Shown here one piece after another: positions 17,187-20,498 of a stretch of DNA of 64,000 bases (within the stretch, counting starts at the first letter, position 1; the number at the start of each line of letters is the position of its first letter). Position numbers and translations under genes: made by a program. This stretch comes from an uncultured Pelagibacteraceae bacterium (GTDB lineage Bacteria > Pseudomonadota > Alphaproteobacteria > Pelagibacterales > Pelagibacteraceae), in NCBI GenBank assembly GCA_902627745.1, contig CACOKG010000001.1, forward strand, positions 391 to 64,390, read 5' to 3'. The notes beneath the pieces were generated by a model. It ran no database searches and was not told where the DNA came from. It saw only the letters and a program-made list of their open reading frames with translations.

Positions 17187-17909
17187 TTAAGATTTAAACG
17201 AATATAATATTATTGCCTTTAGGGCAATAAATGCATCTTTTAAACCAATCTTTTTTCCATCCTCATATGATCTACCATTGTAAGTAATTGGTACCTCATA
17301 AAACTTAAATCCTTTTTTGGATAATTTGATCGTGATTTCTGGTTCAAATGCAAAAGTTTTTTCTTGAAGAGTTATACTTTTTAAAATTGAGCTTTTAAAA
17401 ACCTTGTATCCAGTTTCCATATCAGTCAAATTTAAATTTATCAATGAATTACAAAAAAAAGTTAAAATTTTATTTGCTAGATAATGCCAAAAAAAATGAA
17501 TTCTAGTGTATTTACCTCCACCTAAAAATCGAGAACCATAAACAACGTCTGCATTTGTTTCAAAAAAGGGAAGCAATAATTTGTTATAATCATATGGATC
17601 ATATTCAAGATCTGCATCTTGAATAATTGTAATATCTCCCGTTATGTGTTGAATTGCAGTTTGAATTGCGGCTCCCTTACCTAGATTTTTTTCATGAAAA
17701 AAAACAACAGTTTTTTCTTTATTCTTTATTTCATTTAACAATTCTTTTGTTCCATCATCTGAGGAGTCATCAACGATGATAATTTCATAATCAACAATTT
17801 TATAGTTGTTAAGACTTTCAATTATTTTTTTTAAAATAGCCTGAATTGTTTTTTTTTCATTATAACAAGGAATGATTACTGAAAGTTTGAAATTTTTTCT
17901 ATCAATCAT
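17187..17909 (-). CDS. GT2 glycosyltransferase, DPM1 / polyprenyl-phosphate glycosyltransferase-like
   Basis: SVIIPCYNE, VDDSSDDGT, NLGKGAA, QDADLEYDP, VYGSRF, TDMETGYK. Confidence 0.9.
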   Translation of the reverse strand: MIDRKNFKLSVIIPCYNEKKTIQAILKKIIESLNNYKIVDYEIIIVDDSSDDGTKELLNEIKNKEKTVVFFHEKNLGKGAAIQTAIQHITGDITIIQDADLEYDPYDYNKLLLPFFETNADVVYGSRFLGGGKYTRIHFFWHYLANKILTFFCNSLINLNLTDMETGYKVFKSSILKSITLQEKTFAFEPEITIKLSKKGFKFYEVPITYNGRSYEDGKKIGLKDAFIALKAIILYSFKS

Positions 17910-18165
17910 CTTTTAACTTTTTATTGTGAATATCTTCATTTTGTTTTTTTTTATTTTTTATTTTTTTAATTACTATTCTTAAAGGGTATATGATAATTCC
18001 AAATATTGAGATAATCCCAATAAATATGTAAGCTATTATTGTCCCTAGCATTGGAAGGAGTGGTCCCAATCCTATATAAGCGTGTGCATTAGTAAATGTT
18101 ATTAAGACAATAAGAATCTGTAATAAAAGTATTTTAATCAATAAATTTGAGTTTATCTTTTTCAT
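17902..18165 (-). CDS. Small membrane protein: signal peptide, one TM helix, basic tail
   Basis: Hydrophobic N-terminus ending AHA|YIGLGP, second hydrophobic helix, Lys-rich tail; overlaps both neighbours. Confidence 0.7.
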   Translation of the reverse strand: MKKINSNLLIKILLLQILIVLITFTNAHAYIGLGPLLPMLGTIIAYIFIGIISIFGIIIYPLRIVIKKIKNKKKQNEDIHNKKLKDD

Positions 18166-19468
18166 AAAAATCACCTATATATATACCATCTTTCTTAAAG
18201 GAAAGATTCTTATCATAGCGATTTGATGGATAAAAAAAATCGAAATTTGAAGAATAAAGATATTTTCGTTTACAATTTTTAAAAAAATCATTTTCACAAA
18301 TAATTTTGAATATTTCTCCTTGGCTTGAACTTTGTACAAATAGATCATTACCTAAAAATTGAAGTCTGCCTCTAGTCGGACTAGCAAAATTTTCAGCTTC
18401 GAAAATGCTAGCAATGCTATTATCCTCTAAATTAATTTTGACAATTTTTGAATTTTTGGAACTAAAATTATTATTATCAAATACATACAAAAATCCATCC
18501 TGATGTAATCTTGGTGAGTGTTGTTTTGCAAAAAGATCAACCACAATATGATTAATATTATTATTGTCTAAGTCGTAAAATAAAATCATATCTAGAGACC
18601 TAAATGATAATATTAATATATTCTCAGACGTGAGAGAAATTTTTTTATTTATTAAGTTTATTTCATTTACACCTAGTTTTTGAATATCATTTAAATGAAG
18701 AGGATCGACACAAACCTCATCATCACTTAAAATTTTTCTATCTAAAACATTTTTAAATTCGTCATTTTTAATTAAAATTTCTATTAAACTAAAATTACTG
18801 ATTACCTTACCATTCAAACTGTTTAAAATTAATATGGTATCAAAAGCTGAATTTTTAATGTTACAATTTCTTAGCTCACTATTTTTTAAATCTCCATTTA
18901 AATCATTTGGTAAAGAGACAAATTTTCTTGAGGGAATAAATATTTTATTCTTCTCAACATCTACCCAATGATGATTTAAGCTATTGTTTCTCCAAACAAT
19001 ATTTCCAAATTTGTCTATTCGATAAATACCTTTTGTCTCAAATTTACCAATTAATAAATCCCCATTTTCAAATAAGTGGTAAGGAATAATTTTAGAATTA
19101 TTCCTGAAATTCGATAAGTCCCATGACCATATTACTTTATCAGGAGTTTCCATTAAAATAGGTTGAGTTTGATCATGTTTTACCAATAGATAATGATCAA
19201 ATTTTTCCTTAGGTCTATTGTCAAAATTAAAATTTGAATTAAAGCCAGATTTATTTTTGTCTAAAACTAAACTTTTTCTTGTATCTCTATCACCAAATTT
19301 TTTTTTTAAATTTATATTTAATCTTGTTTCAACATCATTAATAATAAAAGATAATCCTTCGTGAATTCTTTTTAATTTTAGATCATTACTTAAAAATCCA
19401 AGTAAAAAGATAAAAAATAATATTGATAATATAAAACAGAACTTTAAAAGTTTATCTATAATGTCCAT
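18134..19468 (-). CDS. Arylsulfotransferase (ASST)-family protein with an N-terminal membrane anchor
   Basis: NHH, DPLHLND, LSFR, KQHSP and FDN occur in ASST order; WSW and IVW beta-propeller-like segments. Confidence 0.8.
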   Translation of the reverse strand: MDIIDKLLKFCFILSILFFIFLLGFLSNDLKLKRIHEGLSFIINDVETRLNINLKKKFGDRDTRKSLVLDKNKSGFNSNFNFDNRPKEKFDHYLLVKHDQTQPILMETPDKVIWSWDLSNFRNNSKIIPYHLFENGDLLIGKFETKGIYRIDKFGNIVWRNNSLNHHWVDVEKNKIFIPSRKFVSLPNDLNGDLKNSELRNCNIKNSAFDTILILNSLNGKVISNFSLIEILIKNDEFKNVLDRKILSDDEVCVDPLHLNDIQKLGVNEINLINKKISLTSENILILSFRSLDMILFYDLDNNNINHIVVDLFAKQHSPRLHQDGFLYVFDNNNFSSKNSKIVKINLEDNSIASIFEAENFASPTRGRLQFLGNDLFVQSSSQGEIFKIICENDFFKNCKRKYLYSSNFDFFYPSNRYDKNLSFKKDGIYIGDFYEKDKLKFID

Positions 19469-20498
19469 AATTTTAAAATTATTAAGAGATCAAAAGAGGT
19501 TTAACAAGTTATTTCTTTTTTTATCAAATTTTGAAAATAATTTTTTTCAAATAGATAGACTTAAAATTAAAAATCCTGTGTTCATTTGTGGAATGGCAAG
19601 ATCTGGAACTACTTTTTTAACTCATTTATTAGATTCATCGAATTATTTTGGTACCTTTAAATATAAATATCTTCCATTCTATAAAATACCAATTTTTTGG
19701 AATTACATAAATAATTTATTTTATTTAAGTAAAAAAAAAAGACAGAGACTACATGGTGATAATTTAAAGGTAAATATTAATAGCCCAGATTCATTTGAAG
19801 AATTAATTTGGAAGAATTTTTTAGAGGATTATGATTTGAAAGGTTATTGGCAAAAAGTTGAGTATGATGAATTTAGTGATTTATCTAAAAATTTAGAATT
19901 ATTTATTAAAAAAATAATTCACATTAATAAGGTAGATAGATATTTATCGAAAAATAATAATAATATTTTTAGGATTAAATATTTATTAAAGAAATTTCCA
20001 GATTCAAAAATAGTCGTTGTTATAAGAAACCCTGTTGACTTAGCTTTTTCTTCCGCAAAAGTTCATTTAAAATTTCTAAAATATCATAAAACCATTAAAA
20101 ATTTTTCTGAGGAATTGAGCGAATTAGGGCATTATGAATTTGGATTTCAAAGAAAAATGTTTGATTTGACAGGAAATAAATCATTAAATCCACAAAATAT
20201 AAGATTTAAAACAATTAATTTATATTTAGATAGATATCTAGATTTATTAAATTTTATTAGCAAAAACTATTCCAAAGAAATCGAGGATAAAAAGATTGTC
20301 ATTTTGAATTATGATAACTTAAAAAAAATTAATGATTTATCGAAATTATTTCAATACTTAAACATTGATTTAAATGAAGATATGCGAAGTTATTTTGATA
20401 GTAACTTTGTATTAAACACTTATCAAAGAAATGAAAAATTTAAAAAAAAAATTGTTATGAAAGAATTTATAAATTTATCTAAATATTCAATAGTTTGA
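19461..20498 (+). CDS. PAPS-dependent sulfotransferase
   Basis: 5'-PSB loop FICGMARSGTT and 3'-PB IRNPVDLAFS; no signal peptide. Confidence 0.88.
   Translation: MSIILKLLRDQKRFNKLFLFLSNFENNFFQIDRLKIKNPVFICGMARSGTTFLTHLLDSSNYFGTFKYKYLPFYKIPIFWNYINNLFYLSKKKRQRLHGDNLKVNINSPDSFEELIWKNFLEDYDLKGYWQKVEYDEFSDLSKNLELFIKKIIHINKVDRYLSKNNNNIFRIKYLLKKFPDSKIVVVIRNPVDLAFSSAKVHLKFLKYHKTIKNFSEELSELGHYEFGFQRKMFDLTGNKSLNPQNIRFKTINLYLDRYLDLLNFISKNYSKEIEDKKIVILNYDNLKKINDLSKLFQYLNIDLNEDMRSYFDSNFVLNTYQRNEKFKKKIVMKEFINLSKYSIV

Follow-up and report, generated by a model that had tools for sequence, protein, structure and literature searches.

An 87-residue protein encoded on the reverse strand at positions 17902–18165 of the window, the whole 64,000-nucleotide stretch of uncultured Pelagibacteraceae DNA analysed here, may be a membrane-bound tyrosine carrier that is loaded with sulfate inside the cell, moved across the membrane and unloaded by an arylsulfotransferase (ASST). 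On the sequence evidence set out below, we judge the case for and against this proposal to be evenly balanced. The protein belongs to a very large, unnamed family in which the tyrosine at the predicted mature N-terminus is invariant; we found no published description of its motif or function in the literature searched, which included few of the subscription papers. Its gene lies in a four-gene cassette with genes on both strands (17187–20498), where it keeps company with an ASST, a PAPS-dependent sulfotransferase and a glycosyltransferase.

The microprotein open reading frame is a real gene that is under purifying selection after Ala29, since codons 30–61 differ from those of five orthologues at 45 synonymous and only 10 non-synonymous positions. 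Over codons 1–29 the corresponding counts are 24 and 39, so that the predicted signal peptide evolves faster than the mature part; the five orthologues are related to one another, and neither set of counts is independent. An AGGTGA sits 5 nt upstream of the ATG. The reading frame shares 32 bp with the tail of the ASST gene that precedes it and 8 bp with the beginning of the glycosyltransferase gene. Translation gives a basic N-terminus and a hydrophobic stretch, then T-N-A-H-A|Y30-I-G-L-G-P, a second hydrophobic helix ending in Y60-P61 and a Lys-rich tail, which closes the protein as a Lys/Asp C-terminus. This agrees with the first-pass annotation, which had described an AHA|Y site with the Tyr30 codon at 18078–18076, where TAT is indeed found, followed by IGLGP, one further helix and a Lys-rich tail. 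The protein is a YIGLG variant of what we call the YxG-type branch.

The predicted signal peptide (residues 1–29; 18079–18165, reverse strand) was assigned by pattern and by family conservation, and shows the features of a signal peptidase I substrate: a basic n-region, a hydrophobic h-region and A-x-A at positions -3 to -1. Cleavage after AHA is predicted from this pattern, and would leave Tyr30 (18076–18078, reverse strand), the proposed sulfate-carrying phenol, at position +1. The mature core, from Tyr30 to Pro61 (17983–18078, reverse strand), is delimited by the 31-residue Tyr-to-Pro spacing in alignment A10. A Kyte-Doolittle scan finds two hydrophobic segments, which would also accommodate an uncleaved hairpin as an alternative to the cleaved form. 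There are no acidic residues around Tyr30 in AHA-Y-IGLGP; typical protein-tyrosine sulfation sites, of the TPST or RaxST type, have acidic neighbours around the tyrosine, a difference that speaks against the proposal. The motif [AS]xA-Y-[ILVMF]-[DG]-[PL]-[GA] occurs once among the 1765 open reading frames of the genome. No Pfam or NCBIfam model scored above its cut-off for the microprotein in the family libraries and the atlas, and a PDB sequence search with the family returned only ATP synthase b, at E 0.75.

A search with the single sequence recovered 36 close relatives, one of them a fragment; the other 35 span the site and all carry the tyrosine. Profile searches extend the family to 51 of the 401 Pelagibacteraceae genomes searched and, phylum-wide, to 16 of 301; of 7991 scored candidates they accept 5493. 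At 50% identity the family comprises 12,219 clusters at E≤0.001, the weak tail of which may hold unrelated hydrophobic, Lys-rich peptides, and 1844 at 1e-10. The AYIGPG and AYLDPG relatives to which the first-pass annotation likened the protein do exist. Members were found neither in viral contigs nor, with two queries, in plasmids. Tyrosine occupies position +1 in all 150 of the best representatives and in 101 of 101 further homologues, and in none of the 251 is it replaced by phenylalanine. The profile itself contains the tyrosine, which makes this count partly circular; matches with E below 1e-14 could nevertheless easily absorb a Tyr-to-Phe change, and not one of them has it. Position -2 varies freely (Tyr in 91 of the 150 best representatives, Phe in 30, His in 16), and the strict avoidance of Phe at +1 beside this freedom argues that the hydroxyl of the tyrosine matters. 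Conservation of this residue, on which the first-pass annotation had staked its proposal, therefore holds, and so does that of the A-x-A site before it: Ala at -1 in 145 and a small residue (A, S, V or T) at -3 in all 150 of the best representatives, with Gly at +5 in all 150 as well. One close homologue has Asp at -1. The spacing from the tyrosine to the invariant proline is 31 residues, with no insertions or deletions, throughout the YxG branch (80/80 metagenome and 27/27 genome loci).

The neighbour that had been named as an arylsulfotransferase is one: the gene at 18134–19468 (reverse strand) encodes a membrane-anchored protein of 444 residues with one N-terminal hydrophobic segment and a match to PF05935 (E 2.5e-8; 33.8 bits against a cut-off of 24.2); it is only ~20% identical to other members of the family. 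Residues H166/H167, H258-x-N260, R290 and Q316-H317 are invariant in 18 of 18 aligned sequences, and the HxN...SxR...QH pattern recurs in 35 of 37 linked ASSTs. Positions 322–392 of the ASST profile align to E. coli AssT 433–513; if the first four alignment columns are ungapped, H317 (codon 18520–18518) falls on His436 of AssT, its catalytic residue (PMC13426309). Its start has no clear Shine-Dalgarno sequence. On the forward strand, positions 19461–20498 encode a PAPS-dependent sulfotransferase of 345 residues (PF13469, E 1.9e-17) without a transmembrane segment, which keeps R47-S-G-T-T, K164, R189 and S197. The catalytic motifs of both sulfate-transferring enzymes thus appear intact. Judged from charge and hydrophobicity, the predicted topology places the sulfotransferase in the cytoplasm, with Tyr30 and the ASST on the outer face of the membrane. 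Uncontrolled complex prediction of the sulfotransferase with peptide residues 30–75, both entered as 37-row alignments, reached ipSAE values of 0.16 and 0.13, where 0.32 is the mark, and speaks neither for nor against binding.

The association between the three genes extends well beyond the window. We examined flanks of up to ~12 kb around each fetched match at 62 genome loci, which comprise 40 of the 51 Pelagibacteraceae matches, all 17 non-self matches from the phylum and five close loci; the neighbour profiles were built from the same 62, and since the loci are related the counts are not independent. The third mature residue sorts these loci into 28 of YxG and 34 of YxD/E type. An ASST and a sulfotransferase both lie within 4 kb in 26 of the 28 YxG loci, drawn from alpha- and other proteobacteria; one of the remaining two has an ASST 4.3 kb away, and the other is a fusion to a phosphodiesterase-fold domain. 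Metagenomes gave 462 confirmed loci, many of them short; of the best 80, 57 have an ASST, 56 a sulfotransferase and 75 either; for the 23 that reach at least 6 kb, the figures are 21, 21 and 22. Conversely, the ASST profile matches 15 of 401 Pelagibacteraceae genomes, and the peptide gene stands directly behind the ASST in 14 of them. The exception, G252 (79% complete), has two ASSTs (L219, L225) with no adjacent peptide gene in the stretches examined. For the YxG subtype, the linkage to sulfation genes that the first-pass annotation had looked for is thus tight and reciprocal. Three loci (L074, L077, L153) carry two tandem ASST genes per one peptide gene.

The YxD/E loci have other neighbours. 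None of the 34 has an ASST and two have a sulfotransferase; 29 encode a membrane protein of alkaline-phosphatase fold and 28 a soluble enzyme resembling either TagF or a kinase-methyltransferase. PEP mutase, PEP-utiliser, carbamoyltransferase and ATP sulfurylase genes also occur near YxD/E genes. Both branches share one plan, an inside enzyme, a tyrosine peptide and an outside enzyme, with a different chemistry in YxD. In Pelagibacteraceae, YxD peptides adjoin biosynthesis genes of phosphonate and phosphoramidate type, with PEP mutase at L100 and L112 and a PEP-utiliser/PPDK-like protein together with a glutamine amidotransferase at L072, L096 and L108. One alphaproteobacterial genome (G548) holds three members, one YxG and two YxD (L072, L073, L077), the former with its sulfotransferases and each of the latter with its own partners; this pairing with different partners suggests that the third residue confers partner specificity. 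Several loci depart from the common layouts. At L086:4795–8222 a YIDPN peptide has a sulfotransferase of the same family on one side and, in place of an ASST, a membrane protein of sulfatase fold on the other; this may be a hybrid cassette. At L121:6026–7696 a YIDPG peptide forms the N-terminal part of a sulfatase-fold membrane protein with several helices, and an ATP sulfurylase gene adjoins. At L097:2–2011 (L011) a YIGPG peptide is fused to a domain of phosphodiesterase/nucleotide-pyrophosphatase fold, with two more alkaline-phosphatase-fold genes adjoining; the latter locus would represent a third chemistry for the family. We take the kinase-methyltransferase-like neighbour to be NoeA-like from weak methyltransferase matches and from PMC9758233.

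A protein from the YxD branch has probably been described before. Lani_1193, a conserved protein of ~65 residues, neighbours NoeA-like kinase-methyltransferases in 65% of 816 neighbourhoods; like the microprotein family it matches ATP synthase b weakly, and another of its neighbours has the alkaline-phosphatase fold. The paper assigns no motif, tyrosine or carrier role to it and leaves the sulfation branch aside (PMC9758233). We assign it to the YxD branch from this description rather than from its sequence. If it is a family member, its SignalP 6 results ('no signal peptide' in all five rows examined, SP 0.08–0.36; PMC9758233, supplement 8) count mildly against cleavage.

Fusion proteins bear further on the topology. 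A search for the microprotein segment within longer proteins gave 51 matches, of which 37 consist of a signal peptide, Y[LI]DP, a helix and a TagF-like domain that matches the free-standing neighbour at E 1e-46 or better; one of these, P0188, has an additional sulfatase-fold domain. Thirteen of the remaining 14 were inspected: two resemble truncated copies of the TagF-like fusion, and the others look as if read-through or a frameshift had joined them. The TagF-like protein, where it stands alone, is free of hydrophobic segments, and the fused domain is predicted to be cytoplasmic, on the opposite side from the tyrosine, because it follows the basic end of the helix. Fusions to a cytoplasmic enzyme of 370 residues favour a carrier that cycles rather than one that is loaded before export and used a single time. 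The carrier reading gains support from this combination of a parallel YxD branch and fusions to a cytoplasmic transferase.

We infer signal-peptidase cleavage, tyrosine sulfation, membrane crossing and a surface acceptor. The signal peptide may target the protein and leave a free N-terminal tyrosine. The cytoplasmic PAPS sulfotransferase would place sulfate on Tyr30, and the short N-terminal segment would then pass to the periplasmic face, where the anchored ASST would use sulfo-Tyr30 as its aryl sulfate donor; the sulfate would end on an acceptor at the cell surface, which is probably a glycan. In its simplest form the chemistry would run from PAPS through Tyr-O-sulfate and a sulfo-His of the ASST to that acceptor. 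The caveat attached to the first-pass annotation, that an exported tyrosine is no longer accessible to the cytoplasmic enzyme, marks the difficult step of the scheme, and we know of no precedent for a processed N-terminus retracting to the cytoplasm. Crossing might resemble the insertion, by YidC and the membrane potential, of short negatively charged N-terminal segments such as those of M13 procoat and Pf3 coat. M13 procoat has a signal peptide, a very short outer segment, one helix and a basic tail. The microprotein shares this layout with both coat proteins, a likeness of architecture that implies no sequence relation; unlike the carrier proposed here, they cross once and bear no transferable group. 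N-out insertion of negatively charged N-termini is reported to depend on YidC and the proton-motive force (PMC8548208), and sulfation could thus itself drive export, since such segments cross more readily with YidC and the membrane potential.

A small membrane partner encoded in related loci could move the peptide N-terminus. The commoner type, of ~120 residues with three predicted membrane helices, is present in 70 of the 80 metagenome YxG loci and a second type in 2 further ones; the partner slot lies between peptide and sulfotransferase, and the commoner partner is often fused to the latter. The rarer family consists of five sequences of 144–255 residues, one of which matches EMC3_TMCO1 (PF01956) at E 0.0027, below the cut-off. 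Its model (pLDDT 79.8) most resembles chains of a multipass translocon (Z 10.9, 136 aligned residues, rmsd 3.7), the TMCO1 translocon (Z 9.2) and the WRB/CAML complex (Z 8.7), over its whole length but all below the Z of 13 that the tool marks for helical bundles, which leans towards a place in the Oxa1/YidC superfamily; the matched translocon and WRB/CAML chains are presumably TMCO1 and WRB. Foldseek returned nothing at E≤0.001 for either type. The commoner partner gave no Oxa1-family Pfam match in 40 members and a fold with generic helical hairpins only, and no relation between the two families could be detected, although their helix order is similar.

Neither partner type adjoins the peptide in the window's YIGLG subtype. 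The search for the second covered the window's genome (61% complete) and the fetched loci. The commoner one was not found in the window's genome, nor in nine of ten genomes with a partner-less cassette (two of them 94% complete); the tenth carries it on another contig. Crossing would be helped by the small partner in most related loci and by a housekeeping insertase at the window locus, though YidC was not found in the 61%-complete assembly. Using hydrophobicity scale values, we also considered whether partner-less peptides have a more hydrophobic helix; this is true of five other loci and false of the YIGLG subtype, and the idea was rejected.

Taken across both branches, the family, processed by signal peptidase, could be a protein counterpart of a lipid carrier, with a free N-terminal tyrosine loaded inside, carried over by an insertase, unloaded outside and returned; we hold this wider reading tentatively and as somewhat less likely than otherwise. 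Its cargo would be sulfate (YxG) or a phospho-group (YxD), moved by an Oxa1/YidC-type insertase and the membrane potential, and unloading onto surface polymers would fall to a periplasmic ASST or an alkaline-phosphatase-fold transferase. The SAR11 locus would then be a minimal three-gene form that uses the housekeeping YidC.

Two known systems invite comparison. In the PatA/PatB MBOAT-SGNH systems, a tyrosine in a C-terminal FxYxxF motif acts as an acyl shuttle (PMC12148441). The comparison with DltX made in the first-pass annotation stands as an analogy of chemistry: in each case a small membrane protein with an invariant tyrosine, predicted to lie outside, would hold a group between two envelope-modifying enzymes. 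Motif, position and partners differ, however, and by its sequence the microprotein does not belong to the DltX family. It lacks the C-terminal FxYxxF hexapeptide, its conserved tyrosine being residue 30 at the predicted processed N-terminus, and it is paired with a PAPS sulfotransferase and an ASST instead of MBOAT and SGNH proteins. No MBOAT match was obtained among the 93 neighbour representatives scanned, and the window neighbours are the ASST, the sulfotransferase, the GT2 glycosyltransferase, dnaJ and dapB. As the predicted loader is soluble and cytoplasmic, the tyrosine itself would have to change sides, unlike that of DltX or PatA. In caprazamycin biosynthesis, the PAPS enzyme Cpz8 feeds the ASST Cpz4 through a sulfated intermediate (PMC6731281, PMC13426309). 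There, too, a PAPS-dependent sulfotransferase and a PAPS-independent ASST are encoded together; the intermediate is a small triketide pyrone, in place of which the cassette has a tyrosine microprotein, and no pyrone-type synthase gene lies between dnaJ and dapB. The membrane anchor of the cassette ASST, moreover, predicts the opposite side of the membrane from that of Cpz4.

The window locus is a reduced, rearranged variant without a partner gene that is still under selection. The closest matching loci belong to Pelagibacteraceae. The cassette is an insertion, for dnaJ and dapB are direct neighbours in all five of the genomes examined from elsewhere in the genus; its G+C content is 23.3% against 29.2% for the window. 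The glycosyltransferase (GT2, 240 residues; 17187–17909, reverse strand; PF00535, E 1.2e-35) is a variable passenger: the slot behind the peptide holds a GT2 gene in two of five orthologous loci, a GT4-type gene in one (L002:5939–7093) and none in two, which suggests a variable glycan acceptor, and glycan genes frequently flank the cassettes. The ASST and sulfotransferase genes stand head-to-head with starts that overlap by 8 bp (19461–19468), as in five of five orthologous loci, so that the promoter and ribosome site of each must lie inside the other gene; a promoter scan gave fewer sites than in shuffled sequences. Four metatranscriptome assemblies contain short, low-depth contigs, making up small shares and possibly derived from DNA carry-over, over parts of the cassette including 18066–18295. 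PAPS supply is only plausible. Neither Sat-type nor CysD-type ATP sulfurylase was found in the five cassette-bearing genomes tested, all of which have AprA (e.g. G000:C15:1363–3159, L237), and an APS-kinase-like gene, mostly a partial match, is present in four of the five and was not found in the window's 61%-complete genome. Given AprA without Sat or CysD, sulfite oxidation, in place of sulfate activation, might be the source of the APS from which PAPS is made.

Other explanations can be offered for these arrangements. The microprotein could be a non-catalytic subunit that joins the two sulfotransferases, with the partner where there is one, or completes the ASST active site, while something else, for instance a small phenol or a lipid, takes the sulfate across. 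The gene linkage, the constant length and the fusions suit this idea equally well; single-helix small subunits are common in membrane enzymes, the segment in the fusions could just anchor a cytoplasmic enzyme, and no crossing is needed, in keeping with the missing partner gene at the window locus. We nevertheless find it doubtful, if far from negligible, for it leaves unexplained the complete absence of Phe in place of Tyr (0/251), the pairing of the same tyrosine with two unrelated partners, one a beta-propeller ASST and the other of alkaline-phosphatase fold, and the reason why the anchor of a cytoplasmic enzyme should keep an invariant residue on the far side. Nor do the cassettes contain a conserved gene for a different carrier. 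More improbable is a static relay in which the tyrosine stays outside, receives sulfate through a channel or tunnel formed with the partner and hands it to the ASST. This is the mode of action of DltX and the PatA tail (PMC12148441), and it would agree with the predicted position of Tyr30 and the frequent fusion of partner to sulfotransferase. The cassette, however, encodes no MBOAT-like or other tunnel-forming catalyst, the partner is only ~120 residues long with three predicted membrane helices and is missing at the window locus, and a soluble PAPS enzyme needs the acceptor in its own active site.

Equally improbable, in our view, is that the peptide is the final acceptor, a stable sulfotyrosine made by the PAPS enzyme and displayed at the surface as a signal, to divert phages or to mask a receptor; the ASST would then edit it or draw on aryl sulfates from outside. 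ASSTs do sulfate tyrosine peptides in vitro (PMC13426309), and the closest PDB matches of the sulfotransferase family are protein-tyrosine sulfotransferases (E 3e-13). That match proved generic, since an unrelated second sulfotransferase, taken as a control, also matches those enzymes first, and we dropped it as a sign of a tyrosine substrate. The segment left outside the inner membrane, moreover, would be about five residues long and is conserved, not variable, and glycan genes often stand beside the cassettes. That the window locus preserves only a decaying system, its partner lost, its sulfotransferase inverted and GPG changed to GLG, seems to us very improbable. The head-to-head enzyme genes leave no intergenic promoter, the partner is absent and the ASST has diverged to the ~20% identity noted above; yet the window and four of the five orthologous loci have all three genes complete (a contig end truncates the other locus), the peptide core is under purifying selection and the catalytic residues are kept.

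A route for sulfate from PAPS through a tyrosine microprotein to an ASST would be new, as it lacks the features that define both DltX/PatA and Cpz8/Cpz4. ASSTs need aryl sulfate donors, and the natural partners of most of them are unidentified (PMC13426309); if the wider reading given above is correct, the microproteins would be that natural donor for a large class of these enzymes. Bacteria sulfate structures beyond the inner membrane although PAPS is absent there, and the cassette would give a three-gene, directly testable answer as to how. The surface-modification genes of Pelagibacter vary between strains and are thought to be relevant to phage recognition (bioRxiv 10.64898/2026.04.03.716430). 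Since the same peptide family also marks loci for phospho-group modification, one mechanism may span both chemistries, and could cover surface decoration with sulfate, phosphonate and phosphoramidate across many lineages, the most abundant bacteria of the sea among them.
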